Source: an uncultured virus (IMG/VR IMGVR_UViG_2517287023_000001) (taxonomy: Duplodnaviria; Heunggongvirae; Uroviricota; Caudoviricetes). Taken from it: 64,000 bases of DNA. The position numbers and the translations under genes are program-made. Positions 5,756 through 54,227 of the stretch are shown piece by piece (positions within the stretch are counted from its first letter, which is position 1; each line of letters begins with the position of its first letter). The stretch lies in the IMG/VR virus record IMGVR_UViG_2517287023_000001. One strand, written 5' to 3'. The notes beneath the pieces are model-generated. The model saw nothing but the letters and a program-made list of their open reading frames with translations, searched no databases and had not been told where the DNA came from.

Positions 5756-6469
5756 TCACCTCGGAGTCGATGGCGCGTGCGGTCAGTGAAGGCGCTGGTG
5801 TCCAACGCCGTTGCCGCCGGGATGAAGGAGACGGCGCACACACGCACGGGGGATGGGCCCTTGACATCACCCGGTCATGTGCTGCAAGGTTAGGCGTCTC
5901 CACGAGACGGCACGAGGAGCGCCACCGGCGCCCGAAGTGCTAGCTCATCACCCCTATCAGGGATCGAAACACTCGCGGAGACAGAGGCACGAAAACGCGT
6001 TCGCCGAGCTTGGTCTCAGCGGACGCGTTTTTGCTGTTCGGCGTGCGGCTTCGGGTGCCACAGGATGGTAAAATTTCGCTCGCCGCCTACTCTCCGGTGC
6101 TGCCGCCGTGGCATGGCACCGGCTCCATTGCGGCGATGCGGGTCGTGCGACCTGTGCCGATTTCGGATGTTCCTTCCCTGGCCCTTTTGGGCCAGGGCTC
6201 CGAACTTTGCCCCTTGTGACCATGATGCATGGGGCCTGCCGGTGCGTGGGGCTCCCATCTCGAACCGAGCGGATGGGCCACCCGCTACGGGTGGGCCCCT
6301 CTCGCGCTGTCTCTTTTGTTTGCCTGTGGTGTGTGGCGCGGCCCGGGTGACCTCGACTGGGTAGTCGACCCCGCAGAGCGCGAGCCGGATGACGACTGGA
6401 CCCCTTGAGTGACAGCCAGCGACAGCAGAAACCAGTCAAGCGTGACCGTGGAGCCGGAGGGAGGACACC

Positions 6470-32245: not shown

Positions 32246-32659
32246 ATGCGCGACGTGCTCGTGGGTTCCCGTCCACGGTTCGTCGCTGCCACAAGGGTCC
32301 CGTTTGCCCCGCATCCACTGTGGTTCACACACACAGTAGCCCGTGGATCGCAACGTGCAAAGGATCTCGCGTGTGCGACGATCAAATCTATGGCCGATCG
32401 GATGAGTGCCGAAGAGCGTGATAGAGCGTTCTGGGAGACACTTCTGGACAGCAAACGGTCCGGAGTCAAGCGGTCCATCGCGCAGATTGCCAGGGCGTCC
32501 GGCGTGAGCAAGTCCTTTGTGACGGGCCGGTTGGGGGAGCTGCTACGCGCGGGACTGGTTAATCATGCGCGGCATCCGGGAGGGGACCGTCAGCCCCCGG
32601 CGAACGTGTGGTGGCTGACCAGTGCGGGCCGCCGGTACGCCGAGCAGTCCCACCGGTAG
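32246..32659 (+). CDS. Winged-helix DNA-binding protein
   Basis: SIAQIARASGVSKSFVTGRLGELLRAGLV. Confidence 0.7.
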   Translation: MRDVLVGSRPRFVAATRVPFAPHPLWFTHTVARGSQRAKDLACATIKSMADRMSAEERDRAFWETLLDSKRSGVKRSIAQIARASGVSKSFVTGRLGELLRAGLVNHARHPGGDRQPPANVWWLTSAGRRYAEQSHR

Positions 32660-42270: not shown

Positions 42271-42789
42271 TCACGGCGTCACCACCACGCGGGAATCGGT
42301 CAGCTTCGCGGCCAGCCAGGGCGGTAGCGCCGCGATGGGCCGGTTCCGGCTGATCGTGTACGGGCGGCCGTCGACAACGGAGCCGGGGCCCACGAGGTAG
42401 CCGCCGAGACGGCGGCCGGGAGCGCGGACATCGATGCCGGGCCACCGGCCGATCGAGCTGGGCACCACGCCGGTTGGGGCGCGGAAGTACAGGTGCAGCC
42501 CGTGTGCGGTGGCCACGGTGAGGGTGTCCGGCCACGGCCAGCGTGCCGCGGCGCACAGCGCCCGCAGGGTGTCGACACCATCGACGCCGTGCTTGCGGTC
42601 CAGGTCCAGCCCGACCACGTTCGAGGCGCGGCAGGCAACACCGATGTTGACGCCATCGGGCCAGCCGGCGACTGTCGCGGGGTCGGTCGTGATCTGGCGT
42701 GACCAGCCCGGGGCGGCGCCCTTGGCGCCGGCCGGCAGCGGAAACACTGCCAGGCCGGCAGCCAGCGTGGGTCTGGGGTCAGTCCTCAT
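42271..42789 (-). CDS. Bifunctional DNA primase/polymerase N-terminal (Prim-Pol) domain protein
   Basis: VFPL, NIGVAC, LDLD, GLHLYF, GIDVR and GGYLVGPGS motifs. Confidence 0.85.
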   Translation of the reverse strand: MRTDPRPTLAAGLAVFPLPAGAKGAAPGWSRQITTDPATVAGWPDGVNIGVACRASNVVGLDLDRKHGVDGVDTLRALCAAARWPWPDTLTVATAHGLHLYFRAPTGVVPSSIGRWPGIDVRAPGRRLGGYLVGPGSVVDGRPYTISRNRPIAALPPWLAAKLTDSRVVVTP

Positions 42790-43279
42790 CGTCAACGTCG
42801 TCGTAGCAGGTGCAGTCGTAGTGGTTGCGCATGTCGCCGCCGCACTCCGGGCACTCGTGGAGTTCGCGGCGTTCGTCGTCGTCCATGAACTCCTCGTGCC
42901 GCCAGCCCGAGCATCCGCTGTTGTAGCAGCCGCAGCCGGGGCACTCGGGGCACACCATGCCGTTGGTCCACCCACACTCCTGGCACATGACCTGGTTAGC
43001 GGGGTCGTCGTAGGCGGCCTGAGCGACGGGGAAGGTCCAGTCGTTGCGTTGCGCAATGTCCTGTATCGCCTCCACCGCGGTGACGGCCGTGGTCTTGTCC
43101 TCGCCGGCGTGGACCATGCGCAGTGCGACGGCCGCGCGGAAGGCGTGGGCCTGACGCTCGGGCTCTGGCAGGGTCAGGGTGGCGATCACGCCCTGCCGGG
43201 CCTGGGTGTAAGTTTCGCCGGTGCTGTCGCGGCGCTGAGTCGCGGCGCGGGTGAGCTTGCGACTATTTTTCGGCATCAT
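42779..43279 (-). CDS. Hypothetical protein with Cys-rich C-terminus
   Basis: CQECGW..CPECPGCGC..C. Confidence 0.65.
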   Translation of the reverse strand: MMPKNSRKLTRAATQRRDSTGETYTQARQGVIATLTLPEPERQAHAFRAAVALRMVHAGEDKTTAVTAVEAIQDIAQRNDWTFPVAQAAYDDPANQVMCQECGWTNGMVCPECPGCGCYNSGCSGWRHEEFMDDDERRELHECPECGGDMRNHYDCTCYDDVDDED

Positions 43280-43669
43280 CGCTCGTTTCGCGGCCGGGGT
43301 ACGCCCACGCCCGACCCCAACCGACACGAGATCCAATGCCTGACAGCAGTGCGAGTGGGTGGGCGCTGAGTCTGCGACGTCTTCTCCGTTCGCGGCCCGC
43401 CCCCGGCGTGGCAGGGATGGGCTCCCGGATCGGCTGGCGCGGCAGCCGTGCGGGCAGTGTAGCGCAGCCGAGTCGATCAGGGCTCGGTCCGTTGCGGGCG
43501 GCGCGGTTTGAGGCGGACCGGTGGGCGTGCCGCTGAAGGCCCTTGCCGGACGGTGTGGGAGGGGAGGACCCCGCCCCTGTGCGGGCACGTCACCTACGTC
43601 GGGCCGCCCGTAGTGTGACGTGCCGGGGTCGCGTGCTTACTTCCACGACCCCGGACCGGGCCGGTCCGG

Positions 43670-43847
43670 GGTCAGTGAAGGGCGGGCAATGCCCGCTACA
43701 GATGATCGACCGGCGACAGCCTCAATTAAGGGCTGCAACCTGCCTCAATGAAGGGCAGGTATAACACACCCGCTACAGATAATCGGCGACAGCCCAGATT
43801 AAGGGCTGCAACTTGCCTCAATGAAGGGCGGGATCGAGTCCCGCTAC
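43670..43847 (-). CRISPR. Orphan CRISPR-like array: three degenerate type I-G (I-U)-like repeats with two near-identical structured spacers
   Basis: Minus-strand repeats GTAGCGGG-stem-CCCTTCATTGAGGC at 43815-43847, 43742-43776 and (divergent) 43670-43699; inter-repeat 38 and 42 nt. Confidence 0.65.
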
Positions 43848-44260
43848 GGCCAGAAGAGTATCACGTTGGGCCCTGGTGTGTGCTCTGTCTACCTGCCGCG
43901 TCAGGTCCGACCCGGCGCGCGCCAGCAGAAACGGGCAGGCCAGAAAGGCTGCGGTGGCGGCGTGGGAGGACCCCACCCCTGTGCGGGCATGTCACGGACG
44001 TTCGATTGAGGGAGTTCTGGGAGCGCTCGTGATTCCGGGTGGGTAGCGCCGGCCCCACCGGCCACGATGAGGCGTTTTTCCTGCTCACCACGCCCGACGA
44101 GCGTGCGTGCGGGCAGCATGACTGACCGTGGGGGGAGAACGGGGTGACGTACCCGCACAGGGGTGGGGTGGGTCGAGCGGTGTTGAGGCCGTCCCCACGC
44201 GCGTCGGTGTCGAGTCGCCCCCGGGCAAGGGGGCGACTCGAGCGACCCGACACCGGGGGG

Positions 44261-44581
44261 CTACTCGCCGTGGCGCGCTAGGAGTTGTTGCGCGGCTAGA
44301 AGGTCCGGGGTCCATCCAGTGTGTGTGCAGGCCAGGACGAAGCGGTCGCCCTCACGGCGTAGGGCGGGCTGGTAGTGCCAGCCCGCCGCGATGATGAGCA
44401 TCGTCGGGTCGGGCGCGAACTCTGCGGGCAGGGGCATGGTCTCGCCCGTGCGGGCGAGCAGGTCGAGTACCGCGCGCCATGCCCGGTACTCCGCTCCTAG
44501 CTCGTTGAGGTCCACGGGGTCGGTGCCGTCGAAGGCAGTCGGTGGGTGTGTGCCGGGCGAGGAGGGCACTGCGCTACTCAC
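44261..44581 (-). CDS. Hypothetical protein
   Basis: GTGA overlap with upstream gene. Confidence 0.55.
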   Translation of the reverse strand: MSSAVPSSPGTHPPTAFDGTDPVDLNELGAEYRAWRAVLDLLARTGETMPLPAEFAPDPTMLIIAAGWHYQPALRREGDRFVLACTHTGWTPDLLAAQQLLARHGE

Positions 44582-45123
44582 TGGGTCCCTCCTCCTGGTC
44601 GTGGCCGCCCGTATCGGTTTAGGTATGCCTGGTCCAGAAGGGCTGACGGTAGTAGCTGCTTCAACGCGAGGTCTACGATCTCCTGTCGGTTGAGTGCCTT
44701 ACCCGTGACCGGTGGGGTTACCAGGCGTAGTCGGACGGTGGCATCGAGCGCATCGATGACGTATTGAGGTAAGTTGAAGCCGGCGAGCTTGCGGTCAGTT
44801 TCTGGGTCCACCATGTGGGGGCCCACCATCGCGGCGAGCGACAGGGCCTGCGTCACATCCCCTGTTTGGGGGAGGTTAGTTAACTGGTTAACCACGCCGC
44901 CGGATTGTGCGGTGGTGGCTGGAGTCTGCGCCGGGGGTACTTCCTGAGGCTGCACGTTCGCCGGTTCCTGAGGCTGCGTGTACACGGGTTCCTGAGGGGC
45001 CGGCGGAGGCGAGGGTTGGGGTGGGGCTTGCCGCTGTACCGGCGAGGGCGGCGGGAGCGGCGGCGGCGGGGGCGGGACCATAGGTGAGGTTGCACCGGGA
45101 ACCGGCTTCTTTGTGGTCGCCAT
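44578..45123 (-). CDS. Probable RHH-type partition adaptor (ParG-like) with disordered Pro-rich N-terminus
   Basis: Directly downstream of parA; C-terminal KLAGFNLP..VIDAL...NRQEIVDLALKQLL fits a ribbon-helix-helix. Confidence 0.65.
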   Translation of the reverse strand: MATTKKPVPGATSPMVPPPPPPLPPPSPVQRQAPPQPSPPPAPQEPVYTQPQEPANVQPQEVPPAQTPATTAQSGGVVNQLTNLPQTGDVTQALSLAAMVGPHMVDPETDRKLAGFNLPQYVIDALDATVRLRLVTPPVTGKALNRQEIVDLALKQLLPSALLDQAYLNRYGRPRPGGGTQ

Positions 45124-45155: not shown

Positions 45156-45986
45156 TCAGTAGCCGATGGCCTTGACGAGTTGTGCCGCGTGCGCGGCGAA
45201 CACGTCCTCGAGGCGACGTGCGGACGGGTGGTTGTACGCCTCCAACGGCTGGGCGTCGGACAGTGCGGCGGCGAGGGTGTCGTACAGCGGCACGGACGGC
45301 GTCCAGATGAGTTCTGGGCCCCCGGCGGCGGCGAAAGCCTGCGGAAGGTTTTCCTCCTGCACCCTGGCCGTGGCGGACAGTTCCCGGCGGGCTTTGGTCA
45401 CGACGACCCCGACGACTCTCACGTCTTCCAGGCCCATAAGAACCTTGTTGGCGTTGAGGTAGGACACCACGTTTACCCCACCTTCGACCGCGTCGTAGTC
45501 CAGCTCGACGGTGATCAAAAGTCCGTCCGCCGCGGCGAGGGCGACGGCCATGAGGTGGTCCATGCCGGGGTCGGTGTCGATGAGGACCACGTGCCGGTCC
45601 TCGGTCTGGCCGCGTAGAGCAGCGAACAGACGCCGTTCCGCGCCGGGCCTGCCCGCTTCCAAATTGCGGTTTTGCATGTTGATGGCGTTCAGGGAGGGCG
45701 CTACACGGATGTTGCCTGTCCAGGGGACATCCCACTCCACCGGGACCAGCGTCTGGTGGTAGGTGATGTTCTTGGTGGGGTCGATCAAGTCGGCGGTGCC
45801 CGGGTGACCGGCAGCCGCCAACGCAGCACGGTCGATGCCGAACCGTCTCGTGGTGTTGCCCTGGGGGGCCATGTCGGCCACGTCGACCTGCCAGCCGGCA
45901 CGCGCCAGCGCGCACGCCAGCTCCCGGCATTGCGCGCTCTTACCCACGCCGCCCTTGTTGGAGTTGATCAGGATGGTTGTTGCCAT
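45156..45986 (-). CDS. parA: ParA-family partition ATPase
   Basis: KGGVGKS, DMAPQGN and VLIDT motifs. Confidence 0.92.
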   Translation of the reverse strand: MATTILINSNKGGVGKSAQCRELACALARAGWQVDVADMAPQGNTTRRFGIDRAALAAAGHPGTADLIDPTKNITYHQTLVPVEWDVPWTGNIRVAPSLNAINMQNRNLEAGRPGAERRLFAALRGQTEDRHVVLIDTDPGMDHLMAVALAAADGLLITVELDYDAVEGGVNVVSYLNANKVLMGLEDVRVVGVVVTKARRELSATARVQEENLPQAFAAAGGPELIWTPSVPLYDTLAAALSDAQPLEAYNHPSARRLEDVFAAHAAQLVKAIGY

Positions 45987-46310
45987 GGGGGGTCCTAACT
46001 AGGGGTTGGTTCGGATGGATGCGGCGGCGCGTCAGCGCCGCCAAGGTGAAGGGGCCCCTTCGTGGCTGGCTGCGTCCCGTCGCAGCCTGCCCCGAGGCTC
46101 CCCACCGTAGAGGCGTTGTCGGTGGGGAGCGGAAGCACCCCATCATGCGCTCTGAGCAGGTGGTGAGTGCCGGAGGACACGCGGCCGGTGGTGACGTCCC
46201 CGCACAGGGGTGGGGTGATGTACCCGCACAGGGGTGGGGTGATGTCACTACCGGCCACGTGTCCTCCTCGCCTGGTCAACAGGGCTACGCCTCAGTTGGT
46301 AGATGGTGCC

Positions 46311-48150: not shown

Positions 48151-49302
48151 CTACCCTGCGTCGGCTAGCGAGCGTTCTCGTTGCTGGGGGTCGTCCCACC
48201 ACACCCCGGACTTGCCGATAGCGCGAGACGGCTGGCGGTTGGCGCGTTCGCGTTGCCGGCGAGCGGTGATGTCGGACAGGACCGCTCGTGCAAGCGTCGC
48301 CCCTGTTGCCTCTGGCCAGACCTCGGCGTAGTCGGCGGACACGGGATCGCCCGGCGTCGCCGCCCCGGAGGGGCCGGCGGCGCGCACGCGGGCGGGGTCT
48401 TCATAGTGCGGGTCTTCATAGTGCGGGTCTTTAGTGGATGTACCCGTATCGGGGCGGGGTGTTGTGCCTGGGGAGGGCTGGGGTGAGGTGTACATGGGGG
48501 GGGCGGGTCCGGCGGGTTGTCCACACGTCGGCGGTTCGTCTGACCGTGCCGAGGTGAGATCTTCGACCGGAGGCGGGGGCATCGTGCCCGCGGCCTCGGC
48601 CGCTTCGGTGGCCTCGGCGCAGCGTTGTGCGTCGCTGACCGGCGTGTCCTGCTCTTCGGGGGTCAGGACGGCTTCCCACAGTCGAGCGGCCTGGGCCGGC
48701 GTGACCCGACGGGCGAGTGGCAGGATCAGTGTTTCCCTGCCGGGGCGGGCGTGGGTGAGGATGAGGCCGGCGTCGGTGAGTTCGCGGACGAGTCGCGGCA
48801 GGCTGTCGGGTCGGACCCGGATCAACTGGGCGAGTTCGCGGCGGGCTAGGGCGAGGGTGCCGCGTTGGGGGCACCGCTTCCACATGCACAGGGCGTAGAG
48901 ACGCCAGGCCAGGGCAGAGACTAGTGGGCCGGTGCTATCGTCGCCGATGCTCCATTCGGGGAGCTCGACGTAGGGCACGCCCGGGATTACCTGCCGTTCG
49001 GCGGTGAGTTTGCAGCCCCGCCGGCGGGAGATCATGAAGACGGGGGCGTCGGGCACCAGGGCACTGGTGGAGGCGTGTGGGCGGGCGAGTCGTCCTAGGC
49101 ACTTGGCGACGCCGGATTCGGAGAGGCCCAGCCGGCCCGCGTACCAGGCGCGGGAGGCGACGGCGGGGCCCCGGTGCCGGCCGGTCATCACGTCGACCAA
49201 GCCGAACAAATATAGATCGCTTGGGGAGTGGTGGGCAGACAGCACGAGCAGGACAGGTAGGCGGACACGCCGCCCCCTAACGGTCATCTCATCGGGGAGC
49301 AT
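48151..49302 (-). CDS. Putative replication initiator with tandem winged-helix domains
   Basis: Two HTH-like segments (SRAWYAGRLGLSESGVAKCL; RRELAQLIRVRPDSLPRLVRELTDAGLI); lies beside the par module. Confidence 0.55.
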   Translation of the reverse strand: MLPDEMTVRGRRVRLPVLLVLSAHHSPSDLYLFGLVDVMTGRHRGPAVASRAWYAGRLGLSESGVAKCLGRLARPHASTSALVPDAPVFMISRRRGCKLTAERQVIPGVPYVELPEWSIGDDSTGPLVSALAWRLYALCMWKRCPQRGTLALARRELAQLIRVRPDSLPRLVRELTDAGLILTHARPGRETLILPLARRVTPAQAARLWEAVLTPEEQDTPVSDAQRCAEATEAAEAAGTMPPPPVEDLTSARSDEPPTCGQPAGPAPPMYTSPQPSPGTTPRPDTGTSTKDPHYEDPHYEDPARVRAAGPSGAATPGDPVSADYAEVWPEATGATLARAVLSDITARRQRERANRQPSRAIGKSGVWWDDPQQRERSLADAG

Positions 49303-53670: not shown

Positions 53671-54227
53671 GAAATGTCCTCGCTCTCTCGGGTGGTGAGA
53701 GGGGCGCAGCAGCCCGCCCAACGTTGCAGGGTGACTGATAGTCCCCGGCTTCACGTGCGGGGTGCGTCCTCTCGGGGCATCTCGAGCCGGCGAACCCTCC
53801 GGACTTCCAGCTCCCCGGGGCCCTGCCCGACTCAAGTCCCTCAAGGATAACGCGGACACTAAAAATAGTCAAACTATGCTTGATGACTTACCGTGGGGTT
53901 CAGGTGGAGGAGGCACCACCTGCGGCGTGCCTGCAACACGAAACAGCGCCCCCGGGTCACCGGGGGCGCTGTTTCGTGTGTGCTGTCTCCAGGGTGAGGC
54001 GCATTCCGATGCAGAGGCGGGATAGACCCCCCTCGCCTCCGCGTGGCCGCCCACCCCCGGTGCCTGACCGGAAAGGATGGGGCAGCGCATCGCCGCGAAT
54101 GCGCCAAGGAGTCCTCAAACGATCAAGAGCCCAGCCTGACGGCTGGGCTCTTGATGTGTCCCTGACGGCTGGGCTCTTGATGCGTCCCCCTGTTGCCCTC
54201 ATGAGCACCGCTAGAGCGGGGAATCTT

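Follow-up and report, generated by a model that had tools for sequence, protein, structure and literature searches.

Experimental work on types I-F, I-E, I-C and V-A has demonstrated RNA inhibitors of CRISPR systems, or RNA anti-CRISPRs, and regulatory mini-arrays carried by viruses. Closest to the locus described here are the Racrs, repeat mimics that bind Cas6 and Cas7, the complexes formed being aberrant (Camara-Wilpert et al. 2023, PMC10651486); the Cracr RNAs, competitors for Cas proteins that also act as repressors of cas or toxin promoters (Liu et al., bioRxiv 10.1101/2024.10.29.618823); and a mini-array in a Moraxella osloensis I-F1 prophage, whose role is interpreted as regulatory, a guide for repressing cas genes (Shmakov et al. 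2023, PMC10120712). Table 1 of the last paper counts mini-arrays in 4% of 235 type I-G loci, and its available text describes none of them. For type I-G itself, the cut that Csb2 makes in the 36-nt repeat is reported to fall 4 nt 3' of the hairpin, so that an 8-nt 5' handle remains; the protein stays on the hairpin (dissociation constant about 43-55 nM) and does not bind the handle (PMC9638904). Here we analyse 64,000 nt of an uncultured virus (IMG/VR record IMGVR_UViG_2517287023_000001; hereafter the window) and, within it, a unit of three repeats and two spacer-like guides on the minus strand at 43647-43863. We read this unit as a self-contained, cas-less mini-array predicted to give rise to type I-G CRISPR RNA (crRNA)-like RNAs, that is, as an RNA anti-CRISPR of the Racr/Cracr class, and we put the probability of this reading at roughly 0.55.

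An initial annotation, made from the letters of the window, had described covarying repeats, spacers of 38 and 42 nt, a -10 element 7 nt ahead of the first repeat and a closing hairpin with 13-bp arms. All of these can be read in the minus strand (Table 1), and the description holds in every detail; the one point to correct is the tandem period, which is 73/77 nt, with about 2.5 copies of the repeat-plus-spacer unit. The first repeat, R1, consists of GTA, a 6-bp stem (GCGGGA/TCCCGC) closed by the loop CTCGA, the linker CCTTC and the 8-nt handle ATTGAGGC. R2 has the same order of parts, with an 8-bp stem (GCGGGTGT/ATACCTGC) that contains two G.U pairs and the loop GTT. R3 begins with GTA and a 6-bp stem (GCGGGC/GCCCGC) around the loop ATT and keeps the linker CCTTC, with ACTGAC in place of the handle; this ACTGAC runs into the arm of the terminal hairpin, the two features overlapping by 3 nt. 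The stems do covary, the sixth pair being A-U in R1, U-A in R2 and C-G in R3. A repeat search returned a 49-nt direct repeat (90% identity, 73 nt apart) and a 15-nt tail in three copies at spacings of 73 and 73 nt, and the element ahead of each repeat is itself repeated (GATACTCT before R1, GATTATCT before R2 and GATCATCT before R3). With up to two mismatches allowed, CCCTTCATTGAGGC matches the window three times against a mean of 0.28 in shuffled sequence, a count reached in 0 of 100 shuffles; the spacer word GTTGCAGCCCTTAAT gives a weaker signal, with two matches in the window and two reached in 9 of 100 shuffles.

The assignment to type I-G is carried by the relation of R1 and R2 to chromosomal repeats. 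Their last 15 nt (GCCCTTCATTGAGGC) are identical, at 15/15 positions, to the tails of chromosomal repeats near csb2, while R3 agrees at only 10/13. More specifically, a search with the tail pattern CYTYCATTGMGGC across 300 genomes of the host's bacterial family found 15 genomes with at least six matches. At the places listed as arrays in G190, G085, G262 and G284 the matches are spaced 69-77 nt apart, and G231 has scattered single tail matches only. The gene csb2 (TIGR02165) is present in all five array-bearing genomes tested; it lies 6-10 kb from the arrays in G190, G262 and G284 and at the same distance from tail matches in G237 and G163. The family-genome tallies used throughout (300 and 301 genomes) include three genomes flagged as unpublished, G217, G138 and G198, on which no specific claim rests. 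Natural repeats of the family read GTCGC (or ATCGC, GCCGC), an 8-bp stem, a 4-nt loop and then GCCCTTCATTGAGGC; the repeats of the unit start with GTA against the natural GTC, followed by GC...GC stems of 6, 8 and 6 bp, and their periods of 73 and 77 nt fall inside the natural range of 69-80 nt.

A covariance model was built from 11 distinct chromosomal repeats with zero plasmid sequence; in its stem, which is 100% paired, four of the eight pairs vary on both sides. With filters off, the model was run over 82,320 nt spanning the whole plasmid on both strands, and it places R1 first, R2 second and a repeat-like stretch inside the second spacer third (Table 1), against a score of 41.3 bits for a natural I-G repeat. 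The initial annotation had likened the repeats to type I-G, and this typing is borne out both by the 15-nt tail identity beside csb2 and by a plasmid-free model that ranks R1 and R2 first. On the strength of these sequence comparisons we assign R1 and R2 to the family of type I-G repeats that is common across the bacterial family of the host. The next best match of the model, at 46079-46114 in the gap upstream of parA, comprises GTCGC, a hairpin and a tail ending in GAGGC, and may be a further degenerate I-G-like repeat or a chance match. Elsewhere, the G195 chromosome carries a solitary I-G-type repeat (L254 1487-1513; 22.9 bits, E 5.7e-5) beside a gene for a major facilitator superfamily transporter, and G011 carries a two-repeat remnant beside an IS5 transposase gene (L276 1427-1527), showing that stray I-G repeats occur on chromosomes too.

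The linker and 8-nt handle of the unit fit the published cut geometry of Csb2, from which a course of events can be proposed. Transcription from the extended -10 (43855-43863) to the hairpin (43647-43673) would give a minus-strand RNA of about 190 nt. Where the cell has an I-G system of the common lineage, each repeat hairpin would, by homology, be bound by the Cas6 domain of Csb2, which would cut after the CCTTC linker, as in published I-G. The expected products are two 73-nt crRNA-like RNAs (43822->43750 and 43749->43677), each made up of the handle ATTGAGGC (8 nt), a guide of 38 or 42 nt and a hairpin at the 3' end; in size and layout they would correspond to a mature I-G crRNA. Competing with host crRNAs, such RNAs would occupy Csb2 and Cas7g/Cas8g. 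The part then played by the guides could take two forms. In the regulatory one, the conserved 17-nt 5' seed would park Cascade on a partly matching cas or toxin promoter without cleavage; we hold this form to be possible, though tentatively. In the other, the guides would be inert decoys, a form that we regard as somewhat doubtful. The regulatory reading, of the kind proposed for Cracrs, seems to us at least as good as titration, because the same architecture has been described for the prophage regulatory mini-array.

Divergence between the copies bears on whether the unit is maintained. When copies 1 and 2 are compared, agreement is 8/8 and 33/35 positions in the blocks to the two sides of the hairpin apex, and the apexes themselves (7 and 9 nt) are unrelated in sequence and each fully paired. 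Uniform neutral decay would not yield this pattern; the apexes have been either replaced or diversified under selection for pairing. The terminal R3, as its sequence reads, retains exactly what a crRNA 3' end would need, the hairpin and the CCTTC linker, its handle being taken over by the putative terminator. The same comparison speaks to the idea that the unit is a non-functional relic, a captured fragment of a chromosomal I-G array that was tandem-duplicated and is decaying without selection. Such a fragment would account for imperfect repeats of 29-35 nt (R3 with an E-value of 1.3), for one 'repeat' per unit that lacks a hairpin, for the absence of a cognate Cas6 from the host, and for the zero homologues in the collections searched, which give no sign of conservation. 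It sits poorly with divergence this uneven, in which unrelated apexes still pair, with three intact stems that use three different Watson-Crick pairs at one position, with a terminal repeat that keeps just its crRNA 3'-end part, and with the full transcription-unit layout formed by a -10 directly before R1 and a 13-bp hairpin on R3. We consider a relic unlikely, though a serious rival to the reading as an RNA anti-CRISPR.

The two guides, S1 and S2, are near copies of each other. They share 16 of their first 17 nt, then differ in a hexamer (CTGGGC in S1, TGAGGC in S2), agree again at 8/8 positions and end in a 4-nt indel. Among 353 distinct natural I-G spacers, 0 of 62,128 pairs reach 90% identity over 17 nt, and this similarity of the guides to each other is unusual. 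After 2 nt, each spacer opens with GTTGCA followed by GCCCTTAAT and either TGAGGC or CTGGGC, which amounts to the repeat minus its 15-nt hairpin apex; we refer to these stretches as pseudo-repeats r1' and r2'. In the model alignment of the pseudo-repeat in S2, 16 model positions are collapsed to 1 nt. Compared with a natural 5' end fused to the tail, the pseudo-repeat GTTGCAGCCCTTAATTGAGGC agrees at 19/21 positions, and positions 9-23 of S2 agree at 14/15 with every natural repeat tail. The hairpin in each spacer is formed by the pseudo-repeat pairing with the GGCTGT that follows it. Base composition is mildly outlying, S1 and S2 having 50% and 55% GC (near the 6th and 9th percentiles) where natural spacers average 66.5%, and the lengths of 38 and 42 nt lie within the natural range of 30-44 nt.

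Such guides could also be offensive, directing the host's I-G Cascade-Cas3 against rival phages or plasmids and so serving superinfection exclusion or incompatibility. Spacers of natural length, an intact layout of repeat, handle and hairpin, and virus-targeting viral mini-arrays, which PMC10120712 cites as known, are all compatible with this. The guides are nevertheless near copies with a repeat-like insert, unlike the outcome of acquisition from an invader, and no natural pair is so similar. No protospacer was found in the phage collection (E >= 7), the plasmid collection (E >= 2), IMG/VR (0 matches to the 21-nt 5' guide part) or the metagenome collection, and nothing rose above chance in 301 family genomes. 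An offensive array is in our estimate very unlikely.

A variant of the anti-CRISPR reading takes the hairpin-less pseudo-repeat in each guide (GTTGCA plus GCCCTTAATTGAGGC), together with the three different hairpins, as a designed broad-spectrum sponge and not as decay. Two versions are possible: the RNA might be a self-silenced 'dead' crRNA, on which the full I-G Cascade assembles with its seed locked in a hairpin and finds no target, or it might aim Cascade at repeat-derived DNA or at the repeat mimic of a rival element. We think a designed sponge distinctly unlikely. If it were true, each hairpin would perhaps be fitted to another Csb2 variant, favouring entry into hosts with different I-G lineages, and the dead-crRNA decoy design would be one not described for Racr or Cracr RNAs.

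Against shuffled sequence, both strands of the unit fold far more stably (z -5.2 and -6.2), and folding energy alone is therefore unable to choose between them. The minus strand was assigned because of the G.U pairs, the repeat orientation, the layout of -10 and hairpin, and the direction of the flanking genes. Relative to R1, the R2 stem has two extra pairs and the two G.U pairs, whose plus-strand equivalents are A.C mismatches. On the minus strand TACTCT stands at 43860->43855 with TGA ahead of it, giving the extended -10 form, and 10 leader-bearing natural I-G arrays from related genomes have a TAnnnT hexamer about 10 nt ahead of their first repeat. The promoter layout of the unit thus resembles that of natural I-G leaders, and the -10 is taken as a putative promoter on that sequence likeness. 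At gathering thresholds Rfam gave 0 matches in the window, and ARAGORN reported neither a transfer RNA nor a transfer-messenger RNA; with both results a transfer RNA-like origin of the hairpins was dropped.

The surroundings of the unit are those of plasmid maintenance. The window forms the first 64 kb of a separate contig (78,320 bp, 67% GC), next to a chromosome of 5.02 Mb and 70% GC; the contig encodes a phage minor capsid protein, a portal-like protein, a terminase, an amidase, ParA and Prim-Pol, and by this gene content we take it to be a phage-plasmid of an actinobacterium. The unit sits in a 670-bp gap without a convincing open reading frame (ORF), bordered on one side by the final parA-operon gene (44261-44581) and on the other by an ORF at 42779-43588, all on the minus strand. 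Its description as an orphan is accurate, in that the 40 ORFs of the window include no member of a cas family and the sole csb2 of the genome is chromosomal. Around the parA operon, between 43.5 and 46.3 kb, we find five copies (at most two mismatches) of a 20-38-bp motif, GTGACGTGCCCGCACAGGGG(Y)GGGGT, two in tandem upstream of parA and three downstream, of which two bracket the unit as direct copies of 38 nt; with the same tolerance the chromosome holds no copy. This par-type motif, distinct from the CRISPR-like repeats, is likely a Par site, centromere or operator. Tandem repeats also occur elsewhere on the plasmid, at 54135-54188 (26 nt x 2.1, 96%), 48395-48431 (15 nt x 2.5, 100%) and 44941-44997 (24 nt x 2.4, 84%).

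These surroundings could suggest that the unit acts as DNA, as Rep/Par iterons or a centromere, or else encodes a small RNA for maintenance unrelated to CRISPR, such as one for copy-number control. It lies between the parA operon and the Prim-Pol gene in a repeat-rich region, and its two strands fold equally well. The initial annotation had itself named a Rep/Par DNA-binding site as an outcome that would refute it; by sequence, the Par-type sites are a separate motif of 20-38 bp (GTGACGTGCCCGCACAGGGG) whose five copies flank the parA operon and the unit, and the I-G-like tail is found only inside the unit. Double-stranded DNA sites need neither compensatory stem changes nor G.U pairs, Rfam has no match at gathering thresholds, and a role of this sort leaves both the 15/15 identity of the I-G tail and E-values of 1e-5 to 1e-6 unexplained. 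We regard it as highly improbable.

Table 1. Positions of the unit at 43647-43863, its matches to the covariance model, and other features of the window (arrows give the minus-strand direction of reading).
Feature	Position	Strand	Sequence or length	Basis or remark
Putative extended -10	43863->43855	-	TGATACTCT	ends 7 nt ahead of R1; read from sequence
Repeat R1	43847->43815	-	GTAGCGGGACTCGATCCCGCCCTTCATTGAGGC, 33 nt	sequence and covariance-model match
Spacer-like S1	43814->43777	-	38 nt	pseudo-repeat r1' and hairpin CAGCCC/GGGCTG inside
Pseudo-repeat r1'	43792-43812	-	GTTGCAGCCCTTAATCTGGGC	within S1
Repeat R2	43776->43742	-	GTAGCGGGTGTGTTATACCTGCCCTTCATTGAGGC, 35 nt	sequence and covariance-model match
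Spacer-like S2	43741->43700	-	42 nt	pseudo-repeat r2' inside
Pseudo-repeat r2'	43719-43739	-	GTTGCAGCCCTTAATTGAGGC	within S2; repeat with hairpin apex deleted
Degenerate terminal repeat R3	43699->43671	-	GTAGCGGGCATTGCCCGCCCTTCACTGAC, 29 nt	sequence; model score not significant
Perfect hairpin, putative terminator	43673->43647	-	GACCCCGGACCGG C CCGGTCCGGGGTC, 13-bp arms	inverted repeat without U-tract
Model match R1	43815-43847	-		29.1 bits, E 1.5e-6, best on plasmid
Model match R2	43742-43776	-		25.6 bits, E 1.8e-5, second on plasmid
Model match, pseudo-repeat in S2	43719-43739	-		16 bits, E 0.02, third on plasmid
Model match, next best	46079-46114	+		13.6 bits, E 0.11
Model match R3	43672-43696	-		10.2 bits, E 1.3, not significant
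Upstream flanking direct repeat	43964-44001	-	core GTGACATGCCCGCACAGGGG, 38 nt	89% identical to downstream copy
Downstream flanking direct repeat	43562-43599	-	38 nt	402 nt from upstream copy
Par-type motif copy	43562-43599	-
Par-type motif copy	43964-44001	-
Par-type motif copy	44143-44169
Par-type motif copies	46190-46246
ParA	45156-45986	-
Prim-Pol replication gene	42271-43056	-		PF09250, E 2.8e-31
Second cas-less mini-array	6093-6200	+	hairpin, CTCC, ATTGCGGC, 37-nt guide, CCTTCC, hairpin, GCTCC

Several results weigh against the reading of the unit as an RNA anti-CRISPR. Some lie in the unit itself. Natural repeats are 36 nt long and identical within an array, unlike the lengths of 33, 35 and 29 nt seen here, where the stems are also shorter, and the model match of R3 falls short of significance. 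The initial annotation had argued that duplicated, structured spacers suit crRNA mimics, an argument that fails as far as structure is concerned: the folding energies are -14.4 kcal/mol for S1 and -14.9 kcal/mol for S2, natural spacers averaging -10.0 (standard deviation 4.3), 16% of the 353 natural I-G spacers are as stable as S1 and 12% as stable as S2, and a stem run of at least six occurs in 43% of them. Spacer hairpins are ordinary in that set, and we rejected structured spacers as the mark of a decoy. A sigma-70 scan and a terminator scan of the unit each returned zero sites, the former because a -35 is absent and the latter because the hairpin has no T-tract. The position of the unit, in a par/rep maintenance region and outside any recognised anti-defence island, and the finding of no known acr families beside it point the same way.

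Further points on this side concern the resident host, whose chromosome holds three CRISPR arrays. Two of them (10 and 12 repeats) lie on either side of an operon that consists of cas3g (TIGR02621, E 3.5e-217), cas8g1/csx17, csb1/cas7g and csb2; judged by this gene content, cas3g-cas8g1-cas7g-csb2 is the host's type I-G system. The third array, of 34 repeats, adjoins type I-C genes. As RNA the host's I-G repeat reads CCTTCACCGGCCCGTAGCGGTCGGTCTCCATTGCGGC, with the leader on the high-coordinate side of both arrays. It has a common geometry with the plasmid repeat (6-bp stem, 5-nt pyrimidine linker, and an 8-nt handle agreeing at 7/8) and a different stem sequence. Its tail is ATTGCGGC, and not one of the 23 I-G repeats of the host is picked up by the covariance model at E <= 1. 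Host Cas3g is 27-30% identical to Cas3g of five common-lineage loci, tblastn at 1e-5 with host cas8g, cas7g and csb2 gives no match in those loci, and the gene order of the host locus differs from theirs. The host genome has a single csb2. The host-type tail is found in the arrays of 3 of 41 genus genomes, the host counted, and no array with the tail pattern of the unit was seen in 19 other genus genomes sampled; arrays of that pattern are present in other genera of the host's family.

By sequence, then, the unit is matched to a type I-G lineage that the host does not carry. The proposal that its repeats be compared with the host's I-G arrays has accordingly a divided outcome, the repeats belonging to the I-G family of related genomes and not to the divergent lineage of the resident host. 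The hairpin of R1, with 6 bp and a 5-nt loop, resembles in size that of the host repeat (6 bp and a 6-nt loop) more than that of the common type, which has 8 bp and a 4-nt loop. Between its arrays, the host I-G locus (C1 1555001-1568000) contains only cas3g, cas8g1, cas7g and csb2, and genes for IS3-family and ISAs1-family transposases flank it; no cas1, cas2 or cas4 was found there, cas1 and cas4 being confined to the I-C locus. The host's 20 I-G spacers include no match to the plasmid. Spacers 24 and 26 of the host I-C array (C1 1456227-1458715) are identical to each other and match the plasmid at 34/35 nt (C2 75595-75629), where TTC adjoins the match on the plasmid minus strand and the single mismatch is position 6 in that orientation. 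These two matches indicate that the element is under CRISPR pressure, a point that, like the presence of a type I-G system in the host, speaks for the anti-CRISPR reading. The phage-plasmid coexists with this near-perfect resident spacer against it.

Searches for relatives of the unit also weigh on this side. The 1 kb around it gave nothing by blastn against phage and plasmid collections, and with 8 kb the only matches were Prim-Pol genes of Streptomyces plasmids and short matches in a Gordonia phage. In 301 family genomes there was no whole-unit homologue, only I-G array tails and generic GC palindromes. A 25-nt junction pattern found no homologue of the unit in IMG/VR, where a tail-plus-GCKAC pattern gave four loci, none of them repeat-like, and the metagenome collection gave one low-GC chance match and no homologue or protospacer. 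The 14-nt tail word occurs in at least 120 and at least 117 stretches of the large collections, and among the matches listed nearly all are single and due to chance. Two candidate relatives, L012 and L084, turned out to be ordinary small chromosomal arrays, L012 beside cas4g/cas1g, and the single tail matches in genus genomes were set aside as chance matches in coding regions. As for plasmid relatives that would allow synteny to be compared, 200 genus genomes yielded one weak match (a 181-aa protein) and IMG/VR, searched with ParA, yielded none.

The last point on this side is that a regulatory seed target was found at chance level only in the five common-lineage I-G loci, the host I-G and I-C loci and the host genome. 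The best seed match, 11/12 nt in the G190 locus, lies more than 5 kb from the cas operon and was judged to be chance, and a 10/12 match about 180 nt beyond both host array leaders is likewise at chance level. Nor did a chromosomal guide resembling S1 or S2 turn up in these loci or the host genome. The absence of a seed target there weakens the regulatory reading.

The window contains a second cas-less mini-array, at 6093-6200. Its handle, ATTGCGGC, is the exact I-G handle of the host, and the unit is better preserved than the one at 43647-43863; searched against the phage collection, it gave nothing relevant. Just upstream of the host's cas3g (C1 ~1565060-1565240, minus strand of the locus) we find a crRNA-like element whose guide begins GATGCAGGTCGTGCGACCT, and this guide agrees with the plasmid guide at 18/19 nt. 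About 60 nt past the host element, near the cas3g promoter, stands GATGCAGGTCGCGCGAC, a partial target of 17 nt flanked 5' by TTA; the host guide mismatches it at position 12 only and the plasmid guide at positions 6 and 12 only. Together, the 6093-6200 unit and the host element look like a type I-G autoregulator of the CreR type and its viral copy, and the phage-plasmid is predicted from this unit to carry at least one RNA aimed at type I-G. Two short stretches resemble the 3' end of the host I-C repeat: TGGATCGCAAC at 32344-32354 (+), which matches it at 10/11 nt and follows a 6-bp hairpin in the leader of a small gene, and GGGATCGAAAC at 5960-5970 (+), 130 nt ahead of the 6093 unit. By our estimate about 1.3 one-mismatch matches to the I-C end are expected by chance on the plasmid, and neither site is significant alone.

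If the unit at 43647-43863 is active, the mechanism reaches the least-studied type I subtype as well as actinobacterial phage-plasmids, and its natural set of three Csb2-hairpin variants would be informative on recognition by Csb2. Taken with the 6093-6200 unit and the host cas3g element, an active unit would mean that one mimic fits the resident system and another a foreign lineage. For annotation, automatic CRISPR finders may report the unit as a small array.

How the unit compares with known systems depends on which of their features is considered. It shares with the chromosomal I-G arrays of the family a GT(A/C)GC at the 5' end of the repeat, closure of the stem by G-C and C-G pairs, the tail GCCCTTCATTGAGGC and a spacing near 73 nt; in both, a -10 stands immediately ahead of the first repeat and the final repeat is degenerate. 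Those arrays, however, have identical 36-nt repeats with 8-bp stems and 4-nt loops, unrelated spacers and cas genes within 10 kb, whereas the stems of the unit differ between copies, its spacers are near copies and it has no cas genes. The adjacent cas genes and unrelated spacers of a functional CRISPR-Cas locus are accordingly missing.

Like the Racrs of phages and plasmids, the unit is a repeat mimic on a mobile element that keeps both repeat sequence and hairpin (PMC10651486). Racrs are by definition solitary, with no other (partial) repeats, unlike the unit, which combines three repeats and two pseudo-repeats within 180 nt and has full-length spacers. Supplementary file 3 of PMC10651486 lists predicted I-G solitary repeat units ('I-G' occurs 50 times), and among the solitary units listed there none has the tail of the unit in either orientation.

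Cracr RNAs are, like the unit, viral and crRNA-like with degenerate repeats (bioRxiv 10.1101/2024.10.29.618823), and the unit has the repeat-guide-repeat arrangement with a degenerate distal repeat on a mobile element by which Cracrs and viral mini-arrays are recognised. Cracrs often stand in arrays of 2-3 guides aimed at variants of one CRISPR type. A Cracr is defined by at least 9 bp of similarity, proximal to the protospacer-adjacent motif, to a host CreR/CreA guide, which, in the five common-lineage loci, the host I-G and I-C loci and the host genome, the unit at 43 kb lacks and only the 6093-6200 unit shows; nor do the guides at 43 kb pair there above chance, over at least 9 such nt, with a cas or toxin promoter. 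The types listed in the available text of the preprint are V-A, I-F, I-E, I-C and I-B, with I-G absent. In the literature searched, preprint supplements excepted, we found no report of an I-G crRNA-like array on a mobile element or of an I-G CreR-like regulator. Two features stay unexplained by comparison with these systems, the hairpin-less pseudo-repeat in each guide and the lineage mismatch between the unit and the resident system.

The prophage mini-array of Moraxella osloensis (PMC10120712) differs from the unit in belonging to type I-F1 and to a gamma-proteobacterium and in having an identified target in a cas promoter, where the unit is of type I-G, on an actinobacterial phage-plasmid, and without a target found. 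The unit is further set apart by a resident host I-G of another lineage and by the pseudo-repeats in its guides. In architecture, as far as the available text of that paper describes it, the two agree closely. Both are cas-less and sit on a mobile element; both are made up of three repeats plus two spacers that are largely identical, between flanking direct repeats; in both the spacer-proximal ends of the repeats are conserved while the stem sequence varies and the structure is kept; and in both the 5' (seed) part of the spacer is the most conserved. On the reading favoured here, the unit is a type I-G case of a known class, viral mini-arrays, Racrs and Cracrs being already in print.

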